Shown in pieces: positions 16,303-62,243 of a stretch of DNA of 64,000 nucleotides (positions are counted from its first letter, which is position 1; each line of letters starts with the position of its first letter). The DNA comes from an uncultured Holophagales bacterium (lineage in GTDB: Bacteria > Acidobacteriota > Thermoanaerobaculia > UBA5066), in contig CAYLNK010000002.1 of NCBI GenBank assembly GCA_964384675.1, positions 1,516 through 65,515 of the forward strand, in the 5' to 3' direction. The notes beneath the pieces are model-generated. The model did not search any database. It was given only the letters and a program-made list of their open reading frames with translations, and had not been told where the DNA came from. Both the position numbers and the translations under genes were made by a program.

Positions 16303-16322
16303 TCGTGCTCCGGGCCGGGCGC

Positions 16323-17063: not shown

Positions 17064-17144
17064 TCTAGACGAACGGCCCGCAGGATCCGTATCTCCGTCG
17101 TGAGCGTTGACGCTTCGTTCGCCCCGCCCCTATCCTGCCGTCCG

Positions 17145-18161: not shown

Positions 18162-18611
18162 TCAGGTCAGGGGAAGGAGCGTCGAGTCCTTCTTGACGGA
18201 CAGCGAGAGCTCGACCTTCGTCCGCACCACGCCCCGGATGGTCTGGATCCGTTCGCGCAGGACGGACTCCACGTGCTCGACGTCGCGCGCCCGGATCTTG
18301 AGCCTGTATCCGTAGTCGCCCGAGAGCGCGTAGCACTCCTGGACATCGAGGAGGTTCTCGATCTCGTCCAGGAAGGGGCGCTCGAAGCGAGGGTGCTCGA
18401 GACCGACGTCGATGTGTGCCACGAGAGGCATGCCGACGAGTCGCGGATCGAGCAGGGCCGTGAACCTCCGGATGAAGCCCCGGGTCTCGAGCTTCTTGAT
18501 CCGCTCGTTCACCGATGGCGTGGTGAGTCCCACGCTCTCGGCGATTCGCGCCTGGGACACCTTGCCGTCCCGCTGCAAGATATCCAGGATCTTTCGATCG
18601 ATCTCATCCAT
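18162..18611 (-). CDS. Lrp/AsnC family transcriptional regulator
   Basis: 149 aa. N-terminal HTH (DEIDRKILDILQRDGKVSQARIAESVGLTTPSVNERIKKLE) followed by a RAM/AsnC_trans_reg domain. Confidence 0.9.
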   Translation of the reverse strand: MDEIDRKILDILQRDGKVSQARIAESVGLTTPSVNERIKKLETRGFIRRFTALLDPRLVGMPLVAHIDVGLEHPRFERPFLDEIENLLDVQECYALSGDYGYRLKIRARDVEHVESVLRERIQTIRGVVRTKVELSLSVKKDSTLLPLT

Positions 18612-18668
18612 AAAATATTCGGCCCGCTTGTCTGCGGGCCGAATATTATTTGGATGCAGGGGTCTGGA

Positions 18669-24387: not shown

Positions 24388-24463
24388 CGCTGACTGACGT
24401 GCCTTCCTTCCTATCTCTGGCGTGGGGCTGCCGCCCCGCGAACCGTGCGCCCAAGGAGTCCTC

Positions 24464-26227
24464 TTGAAGCGTTTCCTCGCCCTGGCCCTGCCTGCCGTCG
24501 TCGCCGTCGCCGGCTGCTCCACGTCGCAGGCTCCCGGCCCGAAGGCGGCCGCGCCGGCCGCCGCCCCGCAATCCTCGCCGACCGCGACACCGACTCCGCT
24601 GCCGGAGTCGCCCGCCCTGGCCGAGGACGTGGCACGCCTCGAGCTGCAGAAGAAGTTCCGGGCCACGGAGGCCGCGGTCACGGGCAAGTCCTCGACGGGA
24701 GACGACCAGGTCACCCCCGCCCCCGTCGTCTTCGTGGATCCGGCCACCGGCAAGAAGATGGAGCGGATCCCGAAGAACCCGGCCCTCTACGTGGTGCGGG
24801 GCCGCCTCTACTTCGCTGGGCTGGCCGCCAGCAAGGGGATCCCGCTCGTCCGGGAGGATGCCGACGCCTACTACGTGGAGGTCAAGGCCGAGAAGCCCGT
24901 GGCTCCGCCAGCCTCACCCACGCCGGCTGCGGAATCCCTCGAGGGGCTCAAGCCGATCGTGGAGGTGCCCGAGGAGGAAGCCGTCGAGATCGTCCCTCCG
25001 ACGTCCGCCATCCAGATCCACCTCGAGGACGCCTCCCACGGCCTTCCCAACGCCGGAATCTGGCGGGACAACTTCGACGTCAAGGACGTGGACGGTGACG
25101 GGCGGCCCGAGATCGTGACCCCGCCCGCCCGCCTCTCGGGTGACGACATCCAGGCTTACAAGCTCAAAGGGAACCAGTGGTCCCGCGTTCCCCTCAAGTT
25201 CGACGATCCCCAGCAGATCGGCTTCGAATACGGGGGCGTCGCGGTCGGGGACATGGACGGCGACGGCCGGAACGACATCATCTTCGGGAAGCACGGGGGC
25301 GGCCCGACGATCGCCTACAACAAGGGAAAGGGGCTCTTCCGGGTGGAGACGAGGGGCCTGCCGAAGCTGATGACCACCCGGGCCCCCGTCGTCGGGGACC
25401 TGGACGGCGATGGCCGGCTCGACGTCTTCGCCGTCTCCGACATGCCGGAGGCCGCCGACATCGCGCTCGCGGAGCGGAACGGGAATGCCTCGGCGCGGCT
25501 CCCCCGGGTCGACGGCTACCTGCCGGGCTTCGACGCACGCGGCTTCCTCTCGCGGGGCGGGAAGTACGAGGAGGTCCACGCAGGCCTCGAAGAGTGCTGC
25601 TTCGGCTACAACATCGGCCTGATGGCGCCGGCCCCGGACGGCGGCAACCCGTTCTACGTCTCGTCCTGCCGCTACATCAACGGGACGGGGATGCTGTACG
25701 AGTTCGATGCCCGAACCTCGAAGTGGCTCTACGTGGGCCGCAACGTCGTCGAGCTCTACGCCAACCACGTCGGCAGCGCGGTCGGACGTTACATGGGGCA
25801 CCCCGCGGCGTTCGTGGCGGTCACGAAGAACACCCCTCCGGGGGCCTCGAAGAACGTGACCGGGGACGGTCTCTCGATCTACTACCGCGACGGGGGCGTC
25901 TGGAAGCGGACGCGCATCATGAAGGTCATCAAGGACCCGAGCGCCTCGCAGGGCCTGGCGGTGGGGGACCTGAACGGGGACGGCCTCGACGACGTGGTGT
26001 ACGCCGACGACGGCCTGCTGCGGGTGCGGGTCTTCTTCCAGACGGCCAAGGGCGGCTTCGAGGAGCTCGCCTCGGACCTCGAGCCGACCTACACGAATCA
26101 CTCGTCGGCCATCCGGCTCGCCGACGTGGACGGAGACAAGCGGCTCGACATCGTCCTGATGACCCACTACCTCACGGGCGACGAATCGCGGGCCGGGGGC
26201 TTCCGGGTGTTCCGGAACCTACGCTAG
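24464..26227 (+). CDS. Lipoprotein with FG-GAP/VCBS-like (integrin-alpha beta-propeller) repeats
   Basis: TTG start 5 nt after a perfect AAGGAG SD. Lipobox LPAVVAVAGCS. Repeated DxDGDG calcium-binding-like motifs (DVDGDGRPEI, DMDGDGRNDI, DLDGDGRLDV, DLNGDGLDDV, DVDGDKRLDI). Confidence 0.7.
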   Translation: MKRFLALALPAVVAVAGCSTSQAPGPKAAAPAAAPQSSPTATPTPLPESPALAEDVARLELQKKFRATEAAVTGKSSTGDDQVTPAPVVFVDPATGKKMERIPKNPALYVVRGRLYFAGLAASKGIPLVREDADAYYVEVKAEKPVAPPASPTPAAESLEGLKPIVEVPEEEAVEIVPPTSAIQIHLEDASHGLPNAGIWRDNFDVKDVDGDGRPEIVTPPARLSGDDIQAYKLKGNQWSRVPLKFDDPQQIGFEYGGVAVGDMDGDGRNDIIFGKHGGGPTIAYNKGKGLFRVETRGLPKLMTTRAPVVGDLDGDGRLDVFAVSDMPEAADIALAERNGNASARLPRVDGYLPGFDARGFLSRGGKYEEVHAGLEECCFGYNIGLMAPAPDGGNPFYVSSCRYINGTGMLYEFDARTSKWLYVGRNVVELYANHVGSAVGRYMGHPAAFVAVTKNTPPGASKNVTGDGLSIYYRDGGVWKRTRIMKVIKDPSASQGLAVGDLNGDGLDDVVYADDGLLRVRVFFQTAKGGFEELASDLEPTYTNHSSAIRLADVDGDKRLDIVLMTHYLTGDESRAGGFRVFRNLR

Positions 26228-26265: not shown

Positions 26266-26294
26266 TTGACATTCATATCCACGGTTCCTTACAT
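26266..26294 (+). promoter_or_regulatory. Candidate sigma-70-type promoter (TTGACA-17-TTACAT) in an AT-rich intergenic region
   Basis: TTGACATTCATATCCACGGTTCCTTACAT lies about 230 nt upstream of the Cys-rich secreted protein gene. The intergenic region 26228-26523 is markedly AT-richer than its surroundings. Confidence 0.35.
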
Positions 26295-26523
26295 TCCCCT
26301 TTAAGTCGGATGTGGACCATCACGAGTCTCCGCCTGGATTTGCATTCCCGTGGCGCCGCGCTGCCGCACGCCACTCGATCGAACTGGACGTCGAACATGA
26401 CAGGAACTCTCGGAGCTGCGACTCGAACGATGATGACGGAGGTGATCCAGTATCGCGGGAGGATGGAGTTTGGAGTTTCGCGAATTGAACCCGGTCTCAA
26501 TAACTGAATCGGTAGGAGTAAAG

Positions 26524-28077
26524 ATGAAAAAGCTTTCCGCTCTGGCAGCTCTCGGCCTTCTGGCGGCCTCTGGAGCTGGCTACGCGGCGACGTGCTCGCA
26601 GGACAACGTGCCTGCCGCGACGCTGCTCGTGCCCCACTTCAAGGTCAGCCGCGGCACCGCCGACGGCACGGGTCAGATCGCGCCGCAGGGCACGAACACC
26701 GTGATGGCGATCACGAACGTGTCCAACAACGGCGTCATCGCCCACTTCGTCGTGTACAACAAGTACTCGGCGCTGGTCGTCGACTTCAACGTTCCCCTCA
26801 CGGGTAACGACGTCGCGTTCTTCGACATGCGTCAGATCCTCAACGGGGACCTGAACCTGAACAAGAACCTGCAGGCGACCGGCAAGACCGACGCGTGCAC
26901 GACGACCCCCGGCTACGGCCCCACCCGGTACGTCCGCTTCACGAACCCGGACTCGACGGACAAGCTCCTGGCCATCTCGATCTATCCGCCGCTCTCCGGC
27001 TCCTTCCTCAGCGACATGCGCGACTCGCTCGACGAGTCGGGCGACGTCACGTCGTTCCTCAGCGCCAAGTCCGCCAACATCCTCGACGAGGACAACCAGC
27101 GGTGCGGCTCTGACGTCGACGGCAAGGTCGCGGGCGACTTCTCGGGGTACATCACGATTGACGTCGTGAACTACTGCACCCTGCACAACCCGTCCGACAA
27201 CGACGCGCTCTACTTCATCAACGACGCGATCGCGACGACCGGCTGGTCCCCGAACGGCTGGACGCCGAACGTGCTCATGGGCGACATCTTCTATGTCGAC
27301 CCGGCGGCCGCCGGCGGCAACATCAGCGGCGATCCGATGGTCGCCCTGGAGTTCGACGCTCGCCTCGCGACCTCGACCTGCAACTGGTTCAACATCGCCG
27401 GCGTCGCCGGTGAGACCAGCTGCAAGACCTTCTACAACCGCTACTACAACTACCCGGCCTCCCAGAACGACAACGCGGCCACCCCGGCCTCCGTCCCGGT
27501 TGCCTACCGTGGCATCGGCGACGGCCGCGAGCCGCTCACCTCGCGCTACGGCTTCCGCTACCTGTCCGACCAGACCAACGGCCTGACCTCGTGGGCCCTG
27601 GTGTGGCGCTCCGACCTCTGGACCGCCATCAGCATCGCTCCGGACAAGTCCACCACCCTCTGCGAGTGGTGGGGCGACTGCCTCTCGTCCGACATCAACA
27701 ACTGCCGCGGCTGGGGCTCCTGGGATACCCCGCACCAGCTCTCGATCGGCATCTACAACAACGACGAGGGTCAGTACGCCGCCAGCCAGCAGGGCTGCCC
27801 GTCGCCCTGCCAGACTCTCCCGACCCCGTACATCTACCTCGAGACGCAGCGCATCTCCCTCGCGGGCAACGCTGACATCGGCCTCAACGACCCGGGCTTC
27901 AAGGGCGGCTGGATCGACCTGACCATGGGCGGCTTCCCGGCCACCCACCAGGCCTGGGTTGGCATCCAGCACTCGGCCCCCGGCCAGTTCGTGTCCGTCG
28001 GCCACTCGGCCACGGTCCTCTCGAACCAGTTCATCTGCGTTCCGTCGCTCTTCGGCGCCGGCAACATCGTCAACTAG
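26524..28077 (+). CDS. Secreted Cys-rich protein (517 aa), hypothetical
   Basis: SD GGTAGGAGTAAAG-ATG. Signal peptide MKKLSALAALGLLAASGAGYAA. About 14 Cys in the mature protein and many Asn/Asp/Trp. 5' codon usage (AAA, AAG, CTT) is less GC-biased than in neighbouring genes. Followed by a canonical terminator. Confidence 0.7.
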   Translation: MKKLSALAALGLLAASGAGYAATCSQDNVPAATLLVPHFKVSRGTADGTGQIAPQGTNTVMAITNVSNNGVIAHFVVYNKYSALVVDFNVPLTGNDVAFFDMRQILNGDLNLNKNLQATGKTDACTTTPGYGPTRYVRFTNPDSTDKLLAISIYPPLSGSFLSDMRDSLDESGDVTSFLSAKSANILDEDNQRCGSDVDGKVAGDFSGYITIDVVNYCTLHNPSDNDALYFINDAIATTGWSPNGWTPNVLMGDIFYVDPAAAGGNISGDPMVALEFDARLATSTCNWFNIAGVAGETSCKTFYNRYYNYPASQNDNAATPASVPVAYRGIGDGREPLTSRYGFRYLSDQTNGLTSWALVWRSDLWTAISIAPDKSTTLCEWWGDCLSSDINNCRGWGSWDTPHQLSIGIYNNDEGQYAASQQGCPSPCQTLPTPYIYLETQRISLAGNADIGLNDPGFKGGWIDLTMGGFPATHQAWVGIQHSAPGQFVSVGHSATVLSNQFICVPSLFGAGNIVN

Positions 28078-28107: not shown

Positions 28108-28142
28108 GGAGCGGGGGGAAACCCCCGCTCCTTTCTTTTTTT
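28108..28142 (+). terminator. Rho-independent terminator
   Basis: GGAGCGGGGGG-aaa-CCCCCGCTCC followed by TTTCTTTTTTT, immediately downstream of the Cys-rich secreted protein gene. Confidence 0.75.
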
Positions 28143-28256: not shown

Positions 28257-31200
28257 GTGAAAATGGTCTCAGCTCCGCTTCGCCGATGCGTTCTGCTGTC
28301 GGTCGCCGCCACCGCGCTCCTCGGGGCCCCCGTGAGGGATGCCGAGGCCCAGTGCACCGTGAGCGCCCCCCAGCAGTTCCTGTCGAACCCGTCGCCCTAC
28401 CCTCGTTTCCGGACGGCGGGATACGTCAACAGTCTGGGTCTCTACAAGGACCAGAGCGGCATCCAGCGGATGCTCTCCATCGACAACTACGGCTACTACA
28501 TCTTCAATCTGGCGGACCCCAGCTCTCCGAGCTACATGAGCCAGCTCGACATCGAGCAGACGGTGCCTCGAGTCGGGGACACGTTCTCGATCCTGGGCTC
28601 GCTGGCGACCGCGCCGGACGGGTCGAGGGCTCTCGTCACCACGGGCCACACCGCCGAGAACGGCGTCCTCCTCATGAAGGGGAACAGCAGCGCATTCGTC
28701 TACGGAGGCGATTTCAAGCCGAAGGAAGCGCGCGCCGTGGTCCTCGACCAGAACGGGAGCAAGTGGTGGGGATACGCCCTCAAGGACCAGTATCTCTACG
28801 TCGCCGACGTGAGCAGCTTCTGGACCGGCAACCCGTCGACCAAGCCTAACTCGGTCCCCTCGAGCTTCTACGACATCGGGCCCGTCGTTCCCCGCAGCGC
28901 GTCGGTGGCGAACCACCTGATCGTCTTCGCCGTCGGATCCTCGGGAATTCGCGTGGCCGACGCTCGCAACCCAGGATCCGGCTCGTTCCCGATCTACTCC
29001 GTGAGCGCGACGACGCTCGGCTTCGGGGCCGGCACCAGCGTCGAGCGCGTCAGCTCGACCGTCCACCCGAACGGCACGGTCTACATCGTCGCGGAGGGCG
29101 TGATCAACGGGAACCAGACCGCTGGCTTCGTGATGGGGACCCTCTCCTCCGACGGCAGCAGCTTCAGCCGGAAGGGGAACCTCTGGATGCCGCCGTCGCC
29201 GTATTCGGGGACGGGTTCGATCACCTCGGCCTCCCGCCCTGCTCTGGTGTCCGATTCCAGCAACGGGGAGGTCTGGGCCTTCGTGTGGGGCGGTTCCGCC
29301 GCCAGCCGCTTCAAGCTCTTCGGCCTCTCTCTGAAGGAATGGGAGGGGAGCGGCAGCCCCTCCGACCTGACCCCGAACGCGTCGTACCAGTCCTCCGACT
29401 CGTGGGCCACCATCGCGACGACCGAGCCGCTCAAGGTCGGCTCGACGATCTACCTCTACGTGGGCGCGACGAACTCCGGGCAGGCCCTCACGGTATCGTG
29501 TACGTCCCAGAACTCGCCACCGACCGCCACGATCTCCGTCACGAACGTCTCCGACGGCGACACGGTTTTCGTCGGTGACTCGCTCCGCGTGCACGCTGCC
29601 GTGGCGCCCGCTCCTTCCTCGTCCCAGCTCGCGGACTGGGCCTTCGACTTCAACTACCACTCGAACGAGGGGTCGGGATCGACCTATCCCATCCTGCAGA
29701 CGCCGGACCGCACGCAGTCGGCCGCGAGCAGCCAGCCGTTCTCGAACGAGCTCGTGATAGGTCCGTGTGACCCGCGCACCGGCGGGGCGCTGGCCAGCGG
29801 GGCGGGTTGCTGGGCCTCCGTGCTGGGAGACTTCGCCTCGACGGCCGAGGGAGCGGTGCAGCCGCTCCGATTCGCGATGGAGGCGAGGAACGGGTTCGGC
29901 TCCTCTTCGCTGCGCACCTTCACGATCAACTGGAAGATCCCCAAGGCGAGGTTCACCCCCGTCGCCGTGCTGAACGGCGGCCAGCTCAGCGATGCGTCGG
30001 AGGGGAGTCCCCGCAGCGACGGCGCCGGGTTCCGCTGGTACTTCGGGGAGACGCCGGGCAGTACCGCCGTGGTCGAGGACGTCGGCTGCCGGGACAAGCG
30101 GACCTGCACGCACCCGTTCAACAACGGCAAGGGAAAGTACAAGGCCTGGATCCAGGCGGCGTACTCGAACGGCTTCGTCACGGCGGGCGTGCCGGCCAGC
30201 TCCGCCAGCCTTCGCGACGTCGACGTCCAGGACGTCGTCCTCGGTGTGACGGGCGCCTCCGCGTCCGTGACCCGTACGGGCAGCGCGACGAGCATCCCGC
30301 TCAAGGTGACGAAGACCGCGTCGGGCTCGATCAACGACTGCCCGGCCAGCGGCAGCCCGTACGCCTACAGCATCTGCAAGACGACCGACTCCGCCTGCGC
30401 CAGCGCCAGCTCGGCCACCTACCTCCCTCTCACCGTGGACGGTAGCGGGAACGCCCCCATCTCGTTCCTCTTCCCGGAGAACGGCGACTACTACCTGCGC
30501 GTGAAGTACACCTACGGAACCGGCAGCTGCACGTCGCCCCTCTCGGAGTCGTGGAAGCCGGGCCTGGAGAGCGACCCGACGGCGTTCAAGATCAGCGCGA
30601 CGGACGTCGTCACCGTTCCCTCGATCTACCTCGCCGGGCTCAACGGCTCGCAGGAGTACCCGCTCTGCGCTCTCTATTGCAGCGGCGGCAAGTTCAGCGT
30701 CTCACCGGGCCAGACCATCGTCGTGTACGCCTACGTGAACGGCGTCGTCGATCCGAATCCGCCCCCGGGTCTCAGCTGGTCCTTCGGCTCCGCGGGAAGC
30801 CCGAGCCCGTCGAGCGGCAACGGGCAGGGCGTCCGGTTCTCGTATTCGACGGCGGCCACGACCGCGACGATCACCATGCAGGGGTATCCCCAGACGTACA
30901 CCTTCCTCGGCAAGGTGTCCGGCACCACGCCGCCGCCGCCCACCGGCCTCTCGGTGACCGCGTCGGCCAACCCCAACCCGGGCACGGTGAACCAGGCGGT
31001 GTCGTTCACGGCGGCCGCCTCGGGGGGGACCTCGCCCTACACGTACTCGTGGAACTTCACCGACGGGGCCACGTCGAACCAGCAGAACCCCTCCCACTCC
31101 TACTCGGCGACCGGCTCGTACTCCGTGGTCTGCACCGCGACCGATCAGACCGGTGCGCAGGCATCCCGGACGGTCTTCCTGACGGTCAATCCCGTGGCCG

Positions 31201-33284
31201 CGCCCACGCTCGCGGTGGCGCTCACCGACACGCAGACCGGGACGGGGCTCTTCGCGTACCAGGGGAAGTTCCAGGCCGCCAGCGGACAGAGCATCACCTT
31301 CACCGCACGGCTCGGTGAGTCCCTGGCCTCGAACGTGATCTGGGTGTTCGGTGACGGCCAGCAGTCGGCGGCGAACCCGGCCACCTACGTCTACACGAAC
31401 ACGACGGCGTCGGACAAGACGTTCAACGGGTCGATCTCGAACGGTGGCTCCACGATCAATTTCGCCGTGCTGGTCACGAAGGCCGTCAACCAGAACCCGA
31501 CGGGCGCCTACACGTATCGCTACGTCGACACCAGCGCCGTCGACATCGCCAAGGTCGACGCGTCCAAGGCGGTCCGCTTCACGGCCTCCGAGGACGCCGA
31601 CAGCTACGACTGGGACTTCGGGGACAGCAGCCTCCACGGGACCACCAAGAGCGTCGACCACACGTTCCCCGCGACCGGCGGCGCGTACCGGGTCGCGCTC
31701 AAGGAAGTGAAGGCGGGCACGACGTACACCACGGCGAGCCCGGTGACCTTCACGATCCCGGCCCCCCCCGAGCCGCCGCGCTGGATGCTCGTCGGCATGG
31801 CGTCGACGGAGGGGCAGGGCGGCGCGTACTGGAGGTCCGACGTCACGATCTACAACCCGAGCGCCGAGCAGGGGATGGCGCTGCGCCTCGCCTTCCTGGA
31901 CGCCAGCAAGACGGTGAAGCCCGAGGACCTCAAGTGGGCGGTCGTGATCCTGCCTCCGCTCGGGACCAAGACGGTCGTCGACATCCTCGGGAACGGGGCG
32001 CTCCCGGACTGGGGCCTCTTCACGGCGAACCGCTCGGGGGCCCTGCTCATCCAGGGCGACACGCTCCCGACCAACACCGACCCGGTGGTGGTCGGGAAGA
32101 CCTACAACACGGGTACCGTGGAATCGGGGACCTACGGCCTCTCGATCCCGGCGGTGCGCGTCACCGAAGGCGTCAAGCCCTCGAGCGTGGCGGCGGCCAG
32201 CCAGCTGATCGGCCTCCGGCAGACCGACGATTTCTACACGAACCTCGCTGTGGTGAACCTGCGCGCCGACGACGCCGAGGTAGAGGTCCGGTTCTACAAC
32301 GCCGCCGGCGCCCTGGTCGGCCAGCCGGTCACCTACCAGGTCGGGCCGTACGGCATCCAGCAGAAGAACAACATCCTGCGCGACGTCGCGGGGTATCCGG
32401 ACCCGCTCGACTCGTTCCGGGCCGTGCTGACGATCAAGAAGGGGACCGGGGTCACGGCGTTCGCGTCGGTGACCGACGTGAGGTCCAAGGACCCGATCTT
32501 CATCGCCCCCCAGCCGAAGACGAACCCGTCCTACCGTCTGCCGGGCATCGTCCGCGCGGCGGGGGCAAACAACTCGCTGTTCCGGAGCGACGTCGTGCTC
32601 TACAACACGTCCTCCGCGGCGCGCACGGCGACGCTCGCGTTCACCTACCGCTCGTCGAAGGACACCTCGGTCACCAACAAGTTCTGGGAAATCCCCCTCG
32701 CCGCCAACCAGGTGGTGGACATCAACGACTTCGTCAAGACGCAGCTGAACCTGGCGGAGTCCGACGACACCTCGTACTACGACTCGTTCGTCGACGTCCA
32801 GCAAAACGACTCGGGGCAGGACCCGATCCTGGTCATGGGCCGCACCTACAACAAGCAGGACAACGGCAGCACCGGGCTGCAGGTGAAGGCCTTCGGGCCC
32901 GACGACACCGCCTCGGCGTCGGGCGTGAAGAAGCGCCTGATCCTGACGGGGCTCAAGTCGTCCGCCGACCAGTCGGTCGGGTTCCGCTCCAACGTCGCCG
33001 TCTTCCTCGGCACACCCGGTCAGTCGGGCTCGGCGCAGCTGAAGATCCGACTCTACGACGGCAACGGCGACTCGCAGGGGACGCTCAACGTGAGCCTGAG
33101 CGCGGCCAAGCCGTTCCTCCAGATCGGCGACCGCGAGCTGTTCGGAGGCGCGCGGTGGGACCTGTCGAACATCACGGTCGTCGTCGACGTCATCTCCGGG
33201 ACGGTGCCCGTCGCGGGATACGCGACCACGCTCGACAACCGGTCCAACGACGCGGTCTTCACCGGCGCGGTCGCCCTCCCGTAG
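28257..33284 (+). CDS. Giant secreted protein 1 (1675 aa): conserved N-terminal domain, PKD domain, two tandem C-terminal ~250-aa modules
   Basis: Signal peptide MKMVSAPLRRCVLLSVAATALLGAPVRDAEA. The N-terminal ~430 aa is about 70-80% identical to the next gene. PKD domain at about nt 30940-31200 (…SPYTYSWNFTDG…GSYSVVCTATDQTG…). Two C-terminal modules share GGAYWRSDVTIYNPS / NNSLFRSDVVLYNTS motifs. Confidence 0.8.
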   Translation: MKMVSAPLRRCVLLSVAATALLGAPVRDAEAQCTVSAPQQFLSNPSPYPRFRTAGYVNSLGLYKDQSGIQRMLSIDNYGYYIFNLADPSSPSYMSQLDIEQTVPRVGDTFSILGSLATAPDGSRALVTTGHTAENGVLLMKGNSSAFVYGGDFKPKEARAVVLDQNGSKWWGYALKDQYLYVADVSSFWTGNPSTKPNSVPSSFYDIGPVVPRSASVANHLIVFAVGSSGIRVADARNPGSGSFPIYSVSATTLGFGAGTSVERVSSTVHPNGTVYIVAEGVINGNQTAGFVMGTLSSDGSSFSRKGNLWMPPSPYSGTGSITSASRPALVSDSSNGEVWAFVWGGSAASRFKLFGLSLKEWEGSGSPSDLTPNASYQSSDSWATIATTEPLKVGSTIYLYVGATNSGQALTVSCTSQNSPPTATISVTNVSDGDTVFVGDSLRVHAAVAPAPSSSQLADWAFDFNYHSNEGSGSTYPILQTPDRTQSAASSQPFSNELVIGPCDPRTGGALASGAGCWASVLGDFASTAEGAVQPLRFAMEARNGFGSSSLRTFTINWKIPKARFTPVAVLNGGQLSDASEGSPRSDGAGFRWYFGETPGSTAVVEDVGCRDKRTCTHPFNNGKGKYKAWIQAAYSNGFVTAGVPASSASLRDVDVQDVVLGVTGASASVTRTGSATSIPLKVTKTASGSINDCPASGSPYAYSICKTTDSACASASSATYLPLTVDGSGNAPISFLFPENGDYYLRVKYTYGTGSCTSPLSESWKPGLESDPTAFKISATDVVTVPSIYLAGLNGSQEYPLCALYCSGGKFSVSPGQTIVVYAYVNGVVDPNPPPGLSWSFGSAGSPSPSSGNGQGVRFSYSTAATTATITMQGYPQTYTFLGKVSGTTPPPPTGLSVTASANPNPGTVNQAVSFTAAASGGTSPYTYSWNFTDGATSNQQNPSHSYSATGSYSVVCTATDQTGAQASRTVFLTVNPVAAPTLAVALTDTQTGTGLFAYQGKFQAASGQSITFTARLGESLASNVIWVFGDGQQSAANPATYVYTNTTASDKTFNGSISNGGSTINFAVLVTKAVNQNPTGAYTYRYVDTSAVDIAKVDASKAVRFTASEDADSYDWDFGDSSLHGTTKSVDHTFPATGGAYRVALKEVKAGTTYTTASPVTFTIPAPPEPPRWMLVGMASTEGQGGAYWRSDVTIYNPSAEQGMALRLAFLDASKTVKPEDLKWAVVILPPLGTKTVVDILGNGALPDWGLFTANRSGALLIQGDTLPTNTDPVVVGKTYNTGTVESGTYGLSIPAVRVTEGVKPSSVAAASQLIGLRQTDDFYTNLAVVNLRADDAEVEVRFYNAAGALVGQPVTYQVGPYGIQQKNNILRDVAGYPDPLDSFRAVLTIKKGTGVTAFASVTDVRSKDPIFIAPQPKTNPSYRLPGIVRAAGANNSLFRSDVVLYNTSSAARTATLAFTYRSSKDTSVTNKFWEIPLAANQVVDINDFVKTQLNLAESDDTSYYDSFVDVQQNDSGQDPILVMGRTYNKQDNGSTGLQVKAFGPDDTASASGVKKRLILTGLKSSADQSVGFRSNVAVFLGTPGQSGSAQLKIRLYDGNGDSQGTLNVSLSAAKPFLQIGDRELFGGARWDLSNITVVVDVISGTVPVAGYATTLDNRSNDAVFTGAVALP

Positions 33285-33350
33285 CACCACCCGCCGACAC
33301 CATCCTTCCGGCCCGGGCGTGAGCCCGGGCCGTTCCCGTCTGGAGCCCCG

Positions 33351-36300
33351 ATGTCCCGCGCCTCGTCCCGACGCCTCCTGATCGCCGCGGTCATCGCGCT
33401 CTCCCTGGGGCCGTGGGACCGCTCCGCGAGCGCGCAGTGCACGGTGGGCCCGCCGTACGAGTTCCTCTCGGCGCCCGGCCCCTACTCGCGCTTCCGGACC
33501 GAGGGCTACGTCAACAGCCTCGGCGTCTACGAGGACGGGAGCGGGGCCCGCCGGCTCCTCTCGGTCGACAACTACGGCTACTACGTCTTCAGCCTCGGGA
33601 CCCCTGGAGCGCCGAGCCACATGGGCCAGCTCGACATCGAGCAGACCGTGCCGCGCCTCGGCGACACGTTCTCGATCCTGGGACCGCTCGCCGTGGCGCC
33701 CGACGGCTCGCGCGCGCTCGTCTCCACCGGGCACACCGCGGCGAACGGCGTCCTCCTGATGAAGGGCGCGAGCAGCTCGTTCTCGTACGGAGGTGACTTC
33801 AAGCCGACCGGGGCCCGCGACGTGGTGCTCGACCAGGTCGGGAGCAAGTGGTGGGGCTACGCCCTGAAGGACGGTTACCTGTACGCGGCCGACGTGACGT
33901 CGTTCTGGAGCGGCGTCCCGGCCACGAAGCCGGGCTCGATCGCTTCGGAATTCCACGGGATCGGGAGCGTGGTGCCACGGAGCGCGTCCGTGGCGAACCA
34001 CCTGATCGTCTTCGCGACCGGCGGCGGCGTGACCGTGGTCGACGCTCGTAACCCGACGTCGTACTTCCCGTACAACGCGCACTCCGCGGCCTCCCTCGGG
34101 TTCCCGGCCGGCACGAGCCTGGAGCGGGTCAGCGCGGTCACGCGTCCCAACGGCACGGTCCTGATCGTGGCGGAGGGAGTCGTGAACGGGAACCAGACCG
34201 CGGGCTTCGTGATGGGGACGCTCTCGGCCGACGGGGGCACGTTCACGCAGCTCGGGAATCGCTGGGTGCCTCCCGCGCCGTTCTCGGGAGACGGCTCGAT
34301 CACGACGGGCTCCAGGCCCGCGCTCGTGTCGGACGGCGACGCGGGCGACGTCTGGATCTTCGTCTGGGGCGGCTCGTCGACGGGCCAGCTCAAGCTGTAT
34401 GGCCTCTCGGCGAACGACTGGGAGACACGTGGAGCTCCGGCCGACCTCACGCCGACGGCGTCGTACCAGGCCTCCTCGAGCTGGGCCTACGTCGCCACCA
34501 CCGAGCCGCTCATGGTCGGCTCGAGCATCTACCTCTACGTCGGCGCGACCAACTCCGCGCAGGCGATCCGCCTGAGCTGCAAGGCCCCGGCTGCCACGCC
34601 GTCGATCTCGCTCGCGTTCGTGAACGGCGGCGTCGAGTATCCGCTCTGCAGCATGGCGGGCTCCTGCGGCGGGGGGCGCTTCTCGGTGGAGACCGGGCAG
34701 GAGCTGGTCGCGTACGCCTACAAGGGCGGCGTGAAGGACCCGACGCCGCCGGCGGGGCTGGCCTGGTCGTTCGGCGGCGCCGGAGCCCCGTCTCCGACCG
34801 GCGGGACCGGCCAGGGCGTTCATTTCACGTTCACGGCGCCCGCCGGGGACGTCGCGGTCACCATGACCGGGTATCCCGAGACGTACACCTTCACGGGGGC
34901 CGTCTCGAATGCCCTCGCCGTCACGGCCACGGCCGCTCCCAATCCAGGGCGGGTGGGGGAGCCGGTGCAGCTGGGCGCCACGGTGACGGGCGGAACGCCT
35001 CCCTACACGTACGTCTGGACGTTCGGCGACGGCACCACGTCGGCGCTGCCGGCGCCCGTCCACGCCTACGCGAACGCGGGCACCTACTCCGTGACGTGCT
35101 CGGTCAGGGACGCCAACGGGCTCACGAAGGCGGCCGTCGTGCCGGTGACCGTCGACGTCGTGGTCCCGTCCGCGCTCGCGGCCGCGGTGACCGACACCGA
35201 GACCGGCGCGCCTCTCGTCGAATCCGGTGGCCTGCTCCTTTCGGCGAGCGGGCAGAGCCTCACCTTCACGGCGCGCGACGGCGAGACCCTGGCCCCGTCG
35301 GTCGTGTGGAGGTTCGGGGACGGCCAGCTCTCGGCTCTCAACCCGGTGACCCACGTCTACGGGAACAACGGCGCCCTGGACCTCGTCTACAACGGCTCGA
35401 TCTCCGCGGGCGGCGTCACGATCCTCTTCTCGATCGCCGTCGCGCCCGCGGACGCGCCTCCGACGGGCGCCTACTCCTACACCTATTCCGACGGCGGCCC
35501 CGTCGTGGCCACGAAGGTCGATCGGGGGCGCGCCGTCCGGTTCACCGCCGCCGAGAAGGCGGACGGCTACGACTGGGACTTCGGGGACGGCAGCCCGCAC
35601 GGCGCGGCGCGAAGCGTCGACCACACCTTCCCGACGACGGGAGGGGACTACACGGTGACCCTCCGCGAGACGAAGGGCGCCCTGACGGCCGTCACGGCGA
35701 GTCCGGTGACGTTCCACGTTCCGCCTCCCCCCGAGCCGCCACGCTGGATGCTGGTCGGCATGGCGTCGACCGAAGGGCAGGGCGGGGCGTACTGGCGTTC
35801 CGACGTCACGATCGGCAACCCGAGCGGCGCGGCGCCGATGACGGTGCGTGTCGCGCACCTCGACGCCGAAAGGAGCGTCCCGGCGTCCGGGCTCGCCTGG
35901 TCGGTGGTCACGCTCGCCCCGCGCGCCACGCGAACCCTCGTCGATGTCCTCGGCGCCGGCGCCCTGCCCGAGTGGGGCCTCGCGCCCGCGAACCGCTCCG
36001 GCGCCCTTCTCGTGGAGGGCGTCTCGTTGCCCTCGGACGTCGAGCCGGTCCTGGTGGGAAGGACGTACAACACCGGGACCTCGGGGTCCGGGACGTTCGG
36101 GCTCTCGATCCCGGCGGTCCGTACCACGGAGGGGATCCGTCCCCAGGGCGCGGCGTGGGCGTCGCAGCTGATCGGCCTCCGCCAGACCGAAGCGCACTAC
36201 ACGAACCTCGCGGTCGTGAACCTCGGGACGGACGACGCCGAGGTCGAGGTGAGGTTCTTCGATCCGACGGGCGCGGTGCTCGGGCAGCCGGTGCTGTACC

Positions 36301-37247
36301 AGGTCGGGCCGTACGGGATCCAGCAGCGGAACAACGTGCTCCGGGACGCCGCGGGCGTCGCGAGCCCGACCGACTCGTTCCGCGCGTCTCTCACCGTCCG
36401 CCGTGGGACCGGCGTCACCGCGTACGCGTCCGTCACCGACGTGGCGTCCAAGGACCCGGTCCTGAGCGTCCCGGCGGCCGGCGTGAGCGCGTCTTATCGC
36501 CTGCCGGGGATCATCCGGGCGGCGGGCGCGAACGGCTCGCTCTTCCGGAGCGACGTGGTCCTGTACAACGCCGCGGCGGCGGCGCGAGTCGCCACGTTCA
36601 CTTACTCGTATCGCACGAGCCGCGACCCGTCGCTCCGCAGCCTCACCTGGCAGGCTCCGCTCGCGGCCGGGCAGGTCCTCGACATCGTCGACTTCGTGAA
36701 GGCCCGGCTTCCCGTGCCCGACGGCGACGAGACGTCGTACACGGACTCCTTCGTCGACGTGGCGCAGGACGACGGGGGGCCGGATCCGATCCTCGTGATG
36801 GGACGCACGTACAACCAGCAGGGCTCGGGCAGCACCGGACTCCAGGTGAAGGCGTTCGGACCGGCGGACACCGCGTCCGCCGCCGGGCCGAAGCGGCGTC
36901 TCTACCTCACCGGACTCCGCTCCTCGACCGACGGGACGACGGGCTTCCGCTCCAACGTCGCGCTCTTCCTGGGGACGCCGGGAGCCCAGGGGACGGCCCA
37001 GGTGGAGGTGAAGGTCCTGGACGGAAGCGGCGACGTGAAGGGCACGACCGGCGTCACCCTCTCGGCGGGCCAGCCGTTCGTCCAGCTCGGGGACCGGACG
37101 CTCTTCGGCGGGGCGGCCTGGGACCTCTCGAGCATCACGGTCGTCCTCGAGGTGGTCGCCGGCCCGGAGCCGGTCGCCGCCTACGCCACGTCCCTGGACA
37201 ACGTGTCGAACGACGCGGTGTTCCTGCCCGCGGCTCCGCTCCCGTAG
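33351..37247 (+). CDS. Giant secreted protein 2 (1298 aa), tandem paralog of protein 1
   Basis: Signal peptide followed by SASAQCTVGPPYEFLSAPGPYSRFRTEGYVNSLGVYEDGSG…, closely paralogous to gene 1. PKD domain at about nt 34920-35160 (PPYTYVWTFGDGTTS…GTYSVTCSVRDANG). The same two C-terminal modules are present. It lacks a ~370-aa segment that gene 1 has. Confidence 0.8.
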   Translation: MSRASSRRLLIAAVIALSLGPWDRSASAQCTVGPPYEFLSAPGPYSRFRTEGYVNSLGVYEDGSGARRLLSVDNYGYYVFSLGTPGAPSHMGQLDIEQTVPRLGDTFSILGPLAVAPDGSRALVSTGHTAANGVLLMKGASSSFSYGGDFKPTGARDVVLDQVGSKWWGYALKDGYLYAADVTSFWSGVPATKPGSIASEFHGIGSVVPRSASVANHLIVFATGGGVTVVDARNPTSYFPYNAHSAASLGFPAGTSLERVSAVTRPNGTVLIVAEGVVNGNQTAGFVMGTLSADGGTFTQLGNRWVPPAPFSGDGSITTGSRPALVSDGDAGDVWIFVWGGSSTGQLKLYGLSANDWETRGAPADLTPTASYQASSSWAYVATTEPLMVGSSIYLYVGATNSAQAIRLSCKAPAATPSISLAFVNGGVEYPLCSMAGSCGGGRFSVETGQELVAYAYKGGVKDPTPPAGLAWSFGGAGAPSPTGGTGQGVHFTFTAPAGDVAVTMTGYPETYTFTGAVSNALAVTATAAPNPGRVGEPVQLGATVTGGTPPYTYVWTFGDGTTSALPAPVHAYANAGTYSVTCSVRDANGLTKAAVVPVTVDVVVPSALAAAVTDTETGAPLVESGGLLLSASGQSLTFTARDGETLAPSVVWRFGDGQLSALNPVTHVYGNNGALDLVYNGSISAGGVTILFSIAVAPADAPPTGAYSYTYSDGGPVVATKVDRGRAVRFTAAEKADGYDWDFGDGSPHGAARSVDHTFPTTGGDYTVTLRETKGALTAVTASPVTFHVPPPPEPPRWMLVGMASTEGQGGAYWRSDVTIGNPSGAAPMTVRVAHLDAERSVPASGLAWSVVTLAPRATRTLVDVLGAGALPEWGLAPANRSGALLVEGVSLPSDVEPVLVGRTYNTGTSGSGTFGLSIPAVRTTEGIRPQGAAWASQLIGLRQTEAHYTNLAVVNLGTDDAEVEVRFFDPTGAVLGQPVLYQVGPYGIQQRNNVLRDAAGVASPTDSFRASLTVRRGTGVTAYASVTDVASKDPVLSVPAAGVSASYRLPGIIRAAGANGSLFRSDVVLYNAAAAARVATFTYSYRTSRDPSLRSLTWQAPLAAGQVLDIVDFVKARLPVPDGDETSYTDSFVDVAQDDGGPDPILVMGRTYNQQGSGSTGLQVKAFGPADTASAAGPKRRLYLTGLRSSTDGTTGFRSNVALFLGTPGAQGTAQVEVKVLDGSGDVKGTTGVTLSAGQPFVQLGDRTLFGGAAWDLSSITVVLEVVAGPEPVAAYATSLDNVSNDAVFLPAAPLP

Positions 37248-37279: not shown

Positions 37280-38488
37280 GTGGCGTTCGAGCCGGCGGTC
37301 CCCGTGGACGACGTGATCGCGTTCACGGATCTCTCCAAGGTGTATCGCGTCTACGCGAGCCCGCGCGAGAGGCTCGTCTCGGCCCTCTTCGGGGGCGGGC
37401 GGGGCACCGAGGTCCACGCGCTGCGCGGCGTGTCGGGTCGCGTCCCGAGGGGGCGTGTCATGGGGCTGGTGGGAGAGAACGGCTCGGGCAAGAGCACCCT
37501 CCTGAAGGTCCTCTCCGGCACGACTCCGCCGACGGCCGGCACGGTGAGCGTATCGGGCCGCGTGGCGTCGATCCTGGAGCTCGGCTCCGCCTTCCACCCC
37601 GAGGTGACGGGACGGAAGAACGTCGTCCTGCAGGCCGCGCTCCTCGGTCTCTCGCGCGCCGAGACGGAGGCCGCGCTTCCGGAGATCGAGCGCTTCGCCG
37701 AGCTGGGGGAGTTCTTCGACCGGCCGGTGAAGACGTACTCGTCCGGGATGGCGATGCGTCTCGCGTTCGCGGCGGCCACCGCCGTCCTGCCCGACGTCGT
37801 GCTCCTCGACGAGGCGCTCGCCGTCGGAGACGGCCGCTTCCAAAAGAAGTGCGTGGACCGGATCCACGATCTGAAGGCCTCGGGCCGGACGATCCTCTTC
37901 TGCAGCCACGCGATGTACTACGTCTCCACGATCTGTGACGAGGCCATCTGGCTGCGACATGGCGAGGTCGCCGCCTCGGGGGACGCGCAGAAGGTCGTCC
38001 TCGAGTACGAACGGTTCCTCGCCGGCAAGGAGCAGCGCGACCAGTCGGCGGCTCCGGCGCACGCCGTCCAGCCCGATTCGCACGGCCGGATCGTCTCGGT
38101 CGACGTCGTCGGCGCCGGCGGGGAGCCGCGCACCGCCTTCGCTCCGGGCGAGCCGTGGGGGGTCGTGCTCGACCTCGCCGTCGACCGCGCGGACCGCCCG
38201 GTCCAGATCCACCTCGCGGTGTCGACGCGTGACAACGTCGTTTGCCTTTCCTTCGACACGCGCCTGGACGGCTTCGGCCCGCTCTTGGGCGCGGAGCGGT
38301 ACCGCGTGCGGATCGGGCTCGACTCGCTCCCGCTCGCGAAAGGGGAATTCATCGTCTACGCGTACCTGGCCGACGAGAAATCCCTGGCGCTCTACGACGC
38401 CCGGAGCGACCGCGCCTTTCACGTGGAGTCCGAGGCGTGGCAGAGCGGCCTCTTCCTGGCGCCGGGGCGCTGGGAGCGCCTGACCTGA
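37280..38488 (+). CDS. ABC transporter ATP-binding protein, Wzt/KpsT/TagH type with C-terminal Wzt_C-like substrate-binding domain
   Basis: Walker A GENGSGKST, signature YSSGMAMRL, Walker B VVLLDEALAVGD, H-loop CSHAM. About 170-aa C-terminal beta-rich extension as in Wzt. Start set to the in-frame GTG at 37280. No strong SD, so the start is uncertain. Confidence 0.75.
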   Translation: MAFEPAVPVDDVIAFTDLSKVYRVYASPRERLVSALFGGGRGTEVHALRGVSGRVPRGRVMGLVGENGSGKSTLLKVLSGTTPPTAGTVSVSGRVASILELGSAFHPEVTGRKNVVLQAALLGLSRAETEAALPEIERFAELGEFFDRPVKTYSSGMAMRLAFAAATAVLPDVVLLDEALAVGDGRFQKKCVDRIHDLKASGRTILFCSHAMYYVSTICDEAIWLRHGEVAASGDAQKVVLEYERFLAGKEQRDQSAAPAHAVQPDSHGRIVSVDVVGAGGEPRTAFAPGEPWGVVLDLAVDRADRPVQIHLAVSTRDNVVCLSFDTRLDGFGPLLGAERYRVRIGLDSLPLAKGEFIVYAYLADEKSLALYDARSDRAFHVESEAWQSGLFLAPGRWERLT

Positions 38489-38597: not shown

Positions 38598-39593
38598 ATG
38601 AACGACGAACATCGCTCTCCGGCCAACCCTCCCCCGGCGCACGTGTCGGTCCGCTCGCTCTTCCGTGGGGCGGCGGGCGAGACGTTCGACGAGCGGCTGA
38701 GGCTCATGGCGTCGTCCGACCCGGCCGACTGGGACGGCGTGGCGTTCCCCACCGAGGTGGCGATCGAGCTGGCCGCGCTCTGCAACCTGGCCTGTGTCAT
38801 GTGCCCGGTCCCGACGACGAAGCGGCCGCCGGAGCTGATGAAGGAGAAGCTCTTCCTCGAGACGGTGGACCAGCTCGCCACCGAGAAGGGCTACGTCCTC
38901 CTGCCTCAGGGCTTCGGCGAGTCGATGCTCCACCCGAAGTGGGCGGGCCTCATCGCGGCCGCGCGGGAGCGCGGGATCGGCCCGATCATCATGCTGACGA
39001 ACGGCATGCTCCTCAACGAGAAGAACGTGTCGCGAGTCCTGGAGCTGGACGTCGACGCGCTCGTCGTCTCGATCGACGGCACGACCGCCGCGACGTACGC
39101 GTCGGTGCGCGTCGGCGGAGACCTCGACGTCGTCGAGCGGAACGTCGAGCTCTTCCTGGCGCGGCGTGGCGCCAGGTCCTCCCCGAAGCTGGTGGTGCGC
39201 ATCATCCGGATGCAGGACACGGCGAACGAGATCGACGCCTTCTTCGAGCGGTGGACGCCGCGCCTTCAGGGTGGCGACGAGATCCGGATCAACGAGTACA
39301 ACAACTGGTCGGGGCGCGTCGAGGACAGGGCGGCGGCCGGCGCCGCCGCCCCCGACGTCGCGCACCGCGCGCCGTGCCGCATGCTCTGGTCGAACCTCTC
39401 CGTCCACGCCGACGGCAAGGTGTCGGCGTGCTGCCACGACAGCGAGGACGAGCTCGTCGTCGGCGACCTCGCGGCGGGCGACACGCTCCAGTCGATCTGG
39501 CGCGGAGAGAAGCTGAGGGCCCTCCGGACGATCCACCGCGAGGGCCGCACCGCCGAGCTGCCGATCTGCCGCGACTGCCGCAACTGGACCTGA
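38598..39593 (+). CDS. Radical SAM / SPASM-domain protein (putative peptide- or protein-modifying maturase, anSME-like)
   Basis: CNLACVMC (Cx3Cx2C) radical-SAM cluster motif. C-terminal Cys cluster (CRMLW…SACCHDS…ICRDCRNW) is typical of the SPASM/twitch auxiliary Fe-S domain. Confidence 0.8.
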   Translation: MNDEHRSPANPPPAHVSVRSLFRGAAGETFDERLRLMASSDPADWDGVAFPTEVAIELAALCNLACVMCPVPTTKRPPELMKEKLFLETVDQLATEKGYVLLPQGFGESMLHPKWAGLIAAARERGIGPIIMLTNGMLLNEKNVSRVLELDVDALVVSIDGTTAATYASVRVGGDLDVVERNVELFLARRGARSSPKLVVRIIRMQDTANEIDAFFERWTPRLQGGDEIRINEYNNWSGRVEDRAAAGAAAPDVAHRAPCRMLWSNLSVHADGKVSACCHDSEDELVVGDLAAGDTLQSIWRGEKLRALRTIHREGRTAELPICRDCRNWT

Positions 39594-40720
39594 GCGGGCC
39601 GGCCATCCTTCGCCGAGTCGTCGACCGATTCCGTGGGCTCCTGGGCGCGGGAGCCAGCCGCGACGTCGCCCCGGCGGAGCCGGCTCCGTCCGGCCCGGCG
39701 GGGCCGAGCGTCCTCTACATCCTCCCCGCCACGACGATCTACGGCGGGCACCGGGTTGTCTTCGAGCACGCGAACCTCCTCGTCGCCCGAGGCTACGACG
39801 TCACCGTGGTGAGCCCCGGGCCCGCGCAGCAGTGGCATCCCCTGGTGGCGCGCTATCTCACCGTCGACCTCGACGACCCCGCCTCGATGCCGAAGGCCGA
39901 CATCGTGATCGGCACGTCGTGGACGACGATCCGCGCGGCGGTGGCGACGGGGGCGCCCACGATCTTCCACTTCTGCCAGGGGTTCGAGGGGGTCCATCGC
40001 GAGTACGCGCCGATCCTGCCCAAGATCGACGAGGCGTACGCCGTGCCGATCCCGAAGCTCCTCATCTCGGCGCACCTCGAGCCCGTGCTGCGCGAACGGT
40101 ACGGCTCGCGGTGCTACCTGATCGGGCAGTCGATCGACACCACGATCTTCACGCCCGGACCCTTCCGTGAGGACGCCAGGCCGCTCCGGGTGGGTGTGGT
40201 CGGGCCGTACGGGATCCGCCCCAAGGGGATCGACGAGCTGCTCCGGGGGCTGCGCCTCACGAGGGAGGCCGGGCACGAGATCGAGGTGCACCACGCGTCG
40301 CCCGCGTCCCTGGACGAGGGAGAGGCTGCGCTCGGTGTCACCGACCGCTACTACGAACGCCTTTCGACCGCCGAGATGGCGGAGTTCTACCGGGGCCTCG
40401 ACGTCTACATCCATCCGTCGTGGGACGAGGAGGGCTTCCCGCTGCCGCCGCTCGAAGCCATGGCGAGCGGCGTGGCGGTCGCCCTCACCGACATCCGCTC
40501 GTTCAGGCCGATCCCCGAGGACGCCGCCCTGCGCTTCCGTTGGGGAAGCCCCGAGGCGATCCCGCCGCTCTTCTCCCGCTTCGCCGACCCGGCCACGCGC
40601 CGGCGTCTGCGGGAGGCCGGTCTCCGCCTGATCGCGGACTACCGTCACGATGCGGTGATGGACAAGGTCGAGGAGGCGTTCGCGGCCGAGGGGGCCGGGC
40701 GCCGGCGGGGCCCAGGCTAG
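39590..40720 (+). CDS. Glycosyltransferase family 4 (GT-B fold)
   Basis: Conserved GT4 core through to the EX7E region (HPSWDEEGFPLPPLEAMASGVAV). The N-terminus VLYILPATTIYGGHRVV is typical. Between the rSAM stop and this N-terminus the frame has no ATG/GTG/TTG, only a CTG overlapping the rSAM stop, so the start is unresolved. Confidence 0.65.
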   Translation: MSGPAILRRVVDRFRGLLGAGASRDVAPAEPAPSGPAGPSVLYILPATTIYGGHRVVFEHANLLVARGYDVTVVSPGPAQQWHPLVARYLTVDLDDPASMPKADIVIGTSWTTIRAAVATGAPTIFHFCQGFEGVHREYAPILPKIDEAYAVPIPKLLISAHLEPVLRERYGSRCYLIGQSIDTTIFTPGPFREDARPLRVGVVGPYGIRPKGIDELLRGLRLTREAGHEIEVHHASPASLDEGEAALGVTDRYYERLSTAEMAEFYRGLDVYIHPSWDEEGFPLPPLEAMASGVAVALTDIRSFRPIPEDAALRFRWGSPEAIPPLFSRFADPATRRRLREAGLRLIADYRHDAVMDKVEEAFAAEGAGRRRGPG

Positions 40721-58798: not shown

Positions 58799-58853
58799 GG
58801 CGAACCTCACCTCTAAGTGTAGGTGTCTCACGGCGGACGCGCTGTGAGGGGTC

Positions 58854-62233: not shown

Positions 62234-62243
62234 GATCCGCGCC

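Follow-up and report, generated by a model that had tools for sequence, protein, structure and literature searches.

A 64,000-nucleotide stretch of DNA from an uncultured Holophagales bacterium (contig CAYLNK010000002.1, positions 1,516 to 65,515 of the forward strand; here called the window) carries two adjacent genes, gene 1 and gene 2, that encode giant secreted proteins similar to each other and to no recognised family. The locus raises the question of what these giants are, how the pair arose and why one copy is shorter than the other. The reading that we favour, with a probability of roughly 0.6, is that the giants are cell-envelope proteins tied to a glycan exported by an ATP-binding cassette (ABC) transporter, and that gene 2 is a derived duplicate left after an in-frame deletion.

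The window has a GC content of about 70%. The open reading frames (ORFs) of gene 1 (28257-33284) and gene 2 (33351-37247) are both on the + strand and leave a gap of 66 bp (33285-33350), confirming the two neighbouring long secreted-protein ORFs of a preliminary description of this DNA, with an amended length of 1673 amino acids (aa) for gene 1. The start of gene 1 is likely the ATG at 28263 and not the GTG at 28257; AGGGG is located 5 nt upstream of the ATG, and the resulting 1673 aa equal the length of database entry P0002. BLASTP aligns the N-terminal domains of the two proteins with 66% identity over 428 aa (E = 0) and the C-terminal parts with 61% identity over 902 aa (E = 0). In a global alignment the mature N-terminal domains (N-domains) are 71% identical, and the paralogs share 64% amino acid identity. 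With E = 0 in both parts, gene 1 and gene 2 are true tandem paralogs, as was first proposed; the N-terminal similarity stands, and only the 70-80% identity once given for it is slightly high. Low-complexity composition as the source of the similarity is ruled out by these alignments and by profile-profile matches. The family is indeed unrecognised, since Pfam and NCBIfam recognise only PKD domains in the two proteins. Both giants and all orthologs have a signal peptide, which by inspection ends with AxA before QC(T/S), or with G before QC, or in a QGC variant. A sequence identical to gene 2 is present on JGI metagenome contig 3300024274, where the genes are ordered as helix-turn-helix regulator, ABC-2 permease, FG-GAP protein, a 517-aa protein without family, gene 1 and gene 2, followed by an ABC ATPase with Wzt_C, a radical SAM/SPASM gene, a GT4 glycosyltransferase and further genes. 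The coordinates of all features are summarized in Table 1.

Table 1. Features of the giant-gene locus and of the rest of the window, in window positions
Feature	Position	Strand	Description
wzm-like ABC-2 permease	23611..24387	+	first cassette gene; Pfam ABC2_membrane E 8.5e-14
FG-GAP repeat protein	24422..26227	+	Pfam FG-GAP_3 E 7e-30; conserved in the cassette
sigma-70-like promoter match	26266..26295	+	TTGACA-18-TACATT upstream of p517, 10/12 consensus matches
p517	26524..28077	+	517-aa secreted, acidic, Cys-containing protein directly upstream of the giant
intrinsic terminator, p517-gene 1 gap	28108..28141	+	10-bp stem, 9 GC pairs, then T-run
gene 1	28263..33284	+	full-architecture giant, 1673 aa
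gene 1 signal peptide	28263-28349		
gene 1 N-terminal domain	28350-29516		
gene 1 Cys-containing segment	29517-30611		ancestral by comparison with orthologs
gene 1 PKD-like stalk	30612-31763		
gene 1 C-module 1	31764-32531		
gene 1 C-module 2	32532-33281		
hairpin in gene 1-gene 2 spacer	33309..33332	+	GC-rich, no U-run
gene 2	33351..37247	+	derived short paralog, 1298 aa
gene 2 signal peptide	33351-33434		
gene 2 N-terminal domain	33435-34604		
gene 2 deletion junction	~34580-34610		
gene 2 PKD-like stalk	34605-35726		
gene 2 C-module 1	35727-36494		
gene 2 C-module 2	36495-37244		
wzt-like ABC ATPase	37280..38488	+	with Wzt_C carbohydrate-binding domain; closes the cassette
strain-variable glycan block	38598..42262	+	Pfam
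radical SAM/SPASM gene of block	38598-39593		
GT4-type glycosyltransferase of block	39806-40720		
PMT-like membrane protein of block	40721-42262		
1949-aa NHL/DUF11 protein	53066..58912	-	N-terminal part unrelated to giants; ends with the same module pair

The two paralogs differ mainly in the Cys-containing segment of gene 1. This segment, noticed earlier as an insertion in gene 1, is real: it spans about 365 aa (gene 1 aa ~421-785), is absent from gene 2 and includes eight of the 14 cysteines of gene 1. It had been attributed to domain gain or loss, and the orthologs decide for a loss in gene 2. Distant single-copy orthologs carry the segment at the same position (P0003 with 29% identity and E 6e-27, P0004, and about 20 genome loci), and among 186 relatives only the gene 2 cluster shows an N-domain without it. 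On this comparison the segment is ancestral and gene 2 lost it by one in-frame deletion, while a domain gain in gene 1 is ruled out because the orthologs share the segment. No other stretch of the family is as well conserved as its first half (46% and 38% identity over gene 1 aa 500-600), where an invariant GPCD...GxGCWxSV motif is found (aa ~500-600). The deletion junction is in frame and lies at a domain boundary, at a place where the two flanks in gene 1 resemble each other (ALTVSCTS... and AFKISATD...). Its motifs suggest that the lost segment may consist of three beta-sandwich domains, of which the second has a PKD-like WYFG motif. The most divergent giant ortholog (L040, 11941-16938) is without the first two-thirds of the segment and keeps the last sub-domain; because this ortholog was independently shortened in the region lost by gene 2, stalk shortening has occurred more than once. 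On a 4.3-kb metagenome contig (L053, 755-3623), fragments homologous to the segment lie on both strands with frame changes, and may represent an inverted duplication or an assembly artefact.

The duplication is lineage-specific. Among the loci with enough downstream DNA to be counted, 28 (23 genome loci and 5 metagenome loci) have a single giant with a single module pair, and the tandem pair occurs only in the window and in the sibling strain L043 (SRR19226368); elsewhere the gene is single-copy. The sibling proteins are 97% (gene 1) and 93% (gene 2) identical to those of the window. The duplication is older than the word "recent" in the preliminary description implies, because the synonymous distance (dS) between gene 1 and gene 2 is ~0.75, at 64% amino acid identity, against only ~0.22 (0.21-0.25) between the two strains sharing the pair. 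Both copies are kept by purifying selection, since the ratio of non-synonymous to synonymous change (dN/dS) between the strains comes to 0.07 in gene 1 and 0.18 in gene 2. Non-synonymous change is ~2.6 times faster in gene 2 than in gene 1 (dN 0.040 vs 0.015), and gene 2 is also without the best-conserved segment of the family, so that it might be seen as a redundant, decaying copy on the way to a pseudogene, with no function of its own. We consider such decay very unlikely. The 1298-codon ORF is intact in two strains that are dS ~0.22 apart, dN/dS drops to 0.07 in the gene 2 N-domain, the deletion preserves the frame exactly and falls at a domain boundary, and a GGAG ribosome-binding site is kept upstream of the gene 2 ATG. 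The pair is best regarded as an ordinary duplication of what we take to be an undescribed cell-envelope component. In the spacer between the two genes, the centroid fold has a hairpin with a 10-bp stem and a GUGA loop (z-score -2.1), and the sibling strain has the same stem; a role in processing, stability or attenuation is possible.

The surroundings of the giants point to a glycan. The ABC-2 permease upstream and the ATPase with its C-terminal Wzt_C domain downstream make up a Wzm/Wzt-type ABC glycan exporter. The ATPase matches ABC_tran of Pfam with E 2.4e-21 and Wzt_C with 33.2 bits, above the cut-off of 30.4; with NCBIfam, similarity to TagH and Wzt stays below the equivalog cut-offs, and that of the permease to Wzm/KpsM below the curated cut-offs. 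Some 30 loci have a wzm counterpart (38-53% identity) in the corresponding place, and wzt directly follows the giant in ~22 loci. By tblastn, the order GlgC, DnaJ, unknown, TPR, wzm, FG-GAP, p517, giant, wzt, GT4 is fixed across ~30 metagenome-assembled genomes (MAGs). The cassette of wzm, FG-GAP gene, p517 with its terminator, giant, wzt and glycosyltransferases is conserved in Thermoanaerobaculia (Acidobacteriota). Identity across loci is ~80% for GlgC, ~65% for Wzt, ~45% for p517 and the FG-GAP protein, and about 30-38% for the giant, which is a core, fast-evolving gene of a conserved locus. The shared locus places the source of the window within this lineage. The FG-GAP protein, 47% identical to the syntenic gene of locus L002, is probably a lipoprotein (a VAGC lipobox is seen by inspection). 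Distant homologs of the giant are few. P0003 is 37% identical and the Thermoanaerobaculia MAG protein P0004 28-29%; both are encoded by single genes directly upstream of a Wzt-type ATPase and GT4, and counterparts of the FG-GAP protein and of p517, with 47% and 50% identity respectively, lie upstream of P0003.

The protein p517, named for its length, has 12 Cys and a mature pI of 4.5. It is 50% identical to its L002 ortholog, and its signal peptide is near-invariant across 22 loci. A scan of species-representative genomes gives 37 p517 loci, almost all in Thermoanaerobaculia/Acidobacteriota MAGs. In each of the 23 loci checked, a hairpin and T-run equivalent to the terminator of the window follow p517. 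Because of this conserved terminator and the promoter-like site upstream, which was called by its consensus match alone, p517 seems to be transcribed separately, and it looks like a major product that is possibly abundant. We infer that the giant is made by read-through of the p517 terminator or from a promoter of its own. A WRSDL motif shared with the C-modules of the giants suggested that p517 might be built of the same module, and this is ruled out (hhalign E 0.1). Homologs of p517 also occur outside the cassette, at L014 (10001-11617) and L038 (10001-11568), with no wzm, FG-GAP or giant gene nearby; L038 and the cassette locus L031 come from one MAG, so that a second p517 paralog is present in some genomes.

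The position of the giant, p517 and FG-GAP genes between wzm and wzt in every locus would be typical of the parts of one apparatus. The three proteins could in principle be export machinery themselves, a conduit or scaffold from the periplasm to the outer membrane like KpsE/KpsD for KpsMT. This is quite unlikely, as none of them shows PCP or OPX similarity, no membrane or beta-barrel segments were noted in the family scans, and a terminator separates p517 from the giant. Fast evolution and variable stalk length (gene 2, the L040 ortholog) are both unusual for machinery, and the C-module pair is common to peptidases and other cargo-like proteins.

Downstream of gene 2, the two strains that share the gene pair differ. 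In the sibling strain, the genes after gene 2 (13971-19359) are an extra 294-aa gene, wzt, a 482-aa methyltransferase and a fused GT1 gene. Wzt of the window and of the sibling are 84% identical with dS 0.69, against ~97% and dS ~0.22 for the neighbours. This looks like a serotype-like block that was replaced between strains, with a breakpoint just after gene 2. Such block replacement is typical of O-antigen-type loci. For the radical SAM/SPASM protein of the block, the best NCBIfam similarities are to spiro-SPASM and metalloenzyme maturases, far below the cut-offs, and its gene has none corresponding to it in the sibling strain.

The domains of the giants were compared with known folds and families. 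A pair of Cys brackets the N-domain (C33/C415 in gene 1, C30/C410 in gene 2). The second is invariant in seven orthologs and the first is conserved, with a one-residue shift in one ortholog; the two could form a disulfide. The N-domain of ~390 aa is probably a beta-propeller: its leading Foldseek matches are all beta-propellers (probability 0.85-1.0, template modelling (TM) score 0.2-0.3), found with a poor AlphaFold2 (AF2) model from a 5-sequence alignment (predicted local distance difference test (pLDDT) 49, predicted TM score (pTM) 0.53). In our reading, its motifs (GYYIFNLADPSSP, IRVADARNPG) resemble those of LVIVD/YVTN-type propellers. The stalk is a run of PKD-like domains. PKD_4 matches gene 1 with E 5.7e-23 (aa 905-974) and gene 2 with E 2.4e-26 (aa 531-599), a second clear stretch in gene 1 lies at aa ~1098-1150 (E 7.9e-12), and PKD domains of ColH collagenase in the PDB match with E 2.6e-13. 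The single PKD domain first counted in each protein is an undercount, as Pfam places PKD (PF00801 / PF18911) at three stretches in each giant. From WxFGD-type motifs we would read four to five PKD-like domains per giant.

A propeller beside a glycan exporter could also be an enzyme. The giants might be extracytoplasmic glycan-processing enzymes in which the propeller is a glycosidase, lyase or transferase that trims or remodels the Wzm/Wzt polymer, and the Ig-like and C-terminal domains are carbohydrate-binding accessories. The genes lie within a locus for the export and biosynthesis of a glycan, the top fold matches for the N-domain comprise GH43, GH62 and GH32-type propellers, neuraminidase-like proteins and rhamnose-glucuronate lyase, and the module pair matches beta-sandwich domains of GH2 and rhamnosidase. 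However, non-enzymatic propellers (Nup, WD40, clathrin) rank equally with the same model of pLDDT 49, and sequence searches matched no family of glycoside hydrolases or lyases. The invariant residues fall in repeated GDG, PDGxR and IDAxNPG-type motifs that to us look structural rather than like a catalytic triad. The giant also diverges faster than GlgC and Wzt, with which an enzyme would still be compatible; surface-exposed proteins often diverge fast. On balance an enzymatic role is unlikely. Enzyme, export apparatus and decaying copy are each less supported than an envelope protein tied to the exported glycan.

The C-terminal module pair of the giants is widespread. In gene 2 alone the two C-modules align with 30% identity (E 4e-8), and with ortholog profiles hhalign relates module 1 to module 2 with a probability of 99.5% (E 2e-22); RSDV(T/V)(I/L)(Y/G)N motifs are present in the modules. 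The internally duplicated C-terminal module of ~250 aa was therefore correctly recognised, and only its duplication as a trait of these genes has to be given up, because it is ancient and superfamily-wide. Exactly two tandem modules are found in 152 of 167 module-bearing proteins, and in 134 of the 167 the pair reaches to 10 aa or less from the C-terminus, often with a P-x-P tail. A module profile search over 1.84 billion cluster representatives matches 8,008 of them at E <= 1e-3 and 2,219 at E <= 1e-30. Among 44 distant members, the domains that precede the pair include PKD, fn3, M10 and S8 peptidases, FGE-sulfatase and LVIVD, and the pair is also C-terminal on 600-850-aa proteins of Holophagales and Thermoanaerobaculia MAGs with NHL or PKD N-termini. 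In the window itself, the 1949-aa protein has Pfam matches to TEN_NHL, NHL, DUF11 and Ig_7, and the module hidden Markov model matches it at aa 1437-1661 (E 5e-14) and 1693-1940 (E 4e-21). Variable passenger domains joined to a constant C-terminal unit are the pattern of anchoring or sorting domains, and for this reason we infer that the module pair is a general-purpose unit for attachment to the envelope or for sorting. A module pair specific to the wzm/wzt locus is ruled out by three shorter carriers in unrelated contexts; because these are unlinked to wzm/wzt, the pair is not specific to the exported glycan.

For the last 506 aa of gene 2 (aa 793-1298), AF2 gives a quite confident, all-beta model (pLDDT 88, pTM 0.86), which we read as four beta-sandwich domains. 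The best Foldseek matches in the PDB are arrays of macroglobulin, GH2 and Ig-like beta-sandwich domains with TM scores of 0.10-0.16. The fold of the repeated module, an early question for this locus, is thereby placed in the generic beta-sandwich/Ig-like class and in nothing more specific. Alpha-2-macroglobulin / complement C3 proteins give the best Foldseek E values (1.8e-7 and weaker), but with a TM score of 0.10-0.13 and no Pfam A2M match the modules are not assigned to that family; a thioester is impossible in the C-terminal region because it has no Cys. For DUF5719 (PF18986), 12 of the 44 distant members give weak matches, and P0160 (33.8 bits) and P0156 (31.7 bits) pass the gathering score of 26.2 bits over the module. 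The giants of the window and their isolated modules give no DUF5719 match even at E <= 10, suggesting that the module pair is linked to this family only transitively, at the superfamily level at most. DUF5719 is itself an uncharacterised family, and a search found no paper mentioning it in the library covered.

Large secreted proteins encoded beside glycan genes are known from other bacteria. In Geobacillus stearothermophilus NRS 2004/3a, a large secreted envelope protein is likewise tied to a cluster of wzm, wzt and glycosyltransferase genes, the slg cluster (PMC2943079). In surface layer (S-layer) glycan clusters of this kind, Wzm/Wzt carries out the export, the capped glycan chain is predicted to be bound by Wzt, and the final transfer is onto protein (PMC2943079). 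The likeness includes the Wzt_C domain on Wzt here and the methyltransferase directly after wzt in the sibling strain. The differences are that the protein genes here lie between wzm and wzt, that the organism belongs to Acidobacteriota, that the giants have no SLH or other known anchor by Pfam, and that no WsaB-type oligosaccharyltransferase was identified. The S-layer gene sgsE presumably adjoins the slg cluster. The likeness to S-layer glycoproteins is one of gene context only, and both p517 and mature gene 1 (13 Cys) have a Cys content that is atypical for S-layer proteins. A literature search on S-layers of Thermoanaerobaculia found nothing relevant.

TfsA and TfsB of Tannerella forsythia are also two large surface proteins that end in a conserved C-terminal domain common to many secreted proteins; two sources describe them as S-layer glycoproteins and as type IX secretion system (T9SS) cargo (PMC4175972, PMC8869499). 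Similarly, the module pair of the giants also ends the unrelated NHL protein in the window. The tfsA and tfsB genes are, we assume, adjacent. Unlike T9SS cargo with its ~80-aa C-terminal domain (CTD), the giants end in two tandem modules, each a double beta-sandwich, that together measure ~500 aa. Neither giant has a Por_Secre_tail match in Pfam or NCBIfam, the module pair ends with P-x-P, and no secretion or sorting machinery was identified for the giants. A third case is the Methanosarcina mazei surface layer protein (PDB 1L0Q), whose PKD region matches gene 1 aa 864-971 with E 1.3e-6. Only the PKD region matches by sequence; the gene 1 N-domain has no YVTN or LVIVD match in Pfam, and the remaining architecture is unrelated. 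We take 1L0Q to be a cell-surface protein that combines a YVTN beta-propeller and a PKD domain, and this propeller-plus-PKD layout would be common to gene 1 if its N-domain is a propeller.

Together these comparisons are consistent with the following model. The giants would be Sec-exported cell-envelope or surface proteins in which a binding head, made up of the N-domain and the conserved beginning of the Cys segment, is held off the cell by the Ig-like stalk. The C-module pair, which ends thousands of otherwise unrelated secreted proteins, would serve for envelope attachment or sorting. The giant most likely acts together with the exported glycan and p517, because it is nested between the halves of the ABC exporter and the adjacent glycan genes are swapped between strains. 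With its own promoter-like site and terminator, p517 could be produced at a higher level. Gene 2 would represent a variant whose stalk is shorter and whose head is changed or reduced, and the duplication a clean example of how the stalk length of a surface protein changes by in-frame deletion of whole domains.

Several points weigh against this model. Any function for the giants is without experimental or characterised-homolog backing; glycan binding, surface location and high p517 expression are all deduced from gene context, and signal peptides were assigned by eye. The pLDDT of 49 makes the beta-propeller assignment weak, and the TM scores of 0.1-0.16 for the module model support only a domain class. 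The N-domains of gene 1 and six orthologs have no Pfam match, including YVTN/LVIVD; the N-domain has no NCBIfam or PDB sequence match, and a profile of N-domain plus Cys segment found nothing in the PDB. The Cys segment likewise has no Pfam, NCBIfam or PDB sequence match, and separate Pfam scans of the N-domain, the Cys segment and the modules give no family even at E <= 10. The same databases give no match for p517, including a profile against PDB sequences, and no sequence match for the module pair (in Pfam, for the giants' own modules). Finally, the three shorter module-pair proteins are not linked to wzm/wzt.

The envelope model can be extended. The module pair might be a widespread unrecognised surface sorting or anchoring domain, and the cassette might at the same time encode an undescribed envelope layer of Thermoanaerobaculia, in which abundant p517 and the giant are displayed on, or glycosylated with, the strain-variable glycan and the surface is diversified by duplication and stalk deletion. 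We hold this extension to be doubtful, and just as tentative is the comparison within it of the module pair to the T9SS CTD or SLH domains. The locus and its three families are undescribed, yet of a familiar kind, namely large secreted multi-domain proteins beside glycan export genes. Acidobacteriota, including Thermoanaerobaculia, are common in environmental metagenomes and rarely cultured, and to our knowledge their cell envelopes are essentially uncharacterised. The locus offers a concrete conserved set of candidate envelope genes, with a conserved protein part beside a strain-variable glycan part. It also defines three unannotated families, which are p517, the giant N-domain with the Cys segment, and the module pair, which occurs in no fewer than 8,000 protein clusters. 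Should the pair serve for anchoring or sorting, the surface proteins of these phyla could be predicted from sequence.

Two other genes of the window appear unrelated to the giants. A PqqD-like small protein (60330-60821), a possible peptide-recognition element, adjoins an unannotated 318-aa ORF (62157-63113), and a 1051-aa protein encoded at 43354-46509 is a fusion of MFS and spermidine-synthase types.

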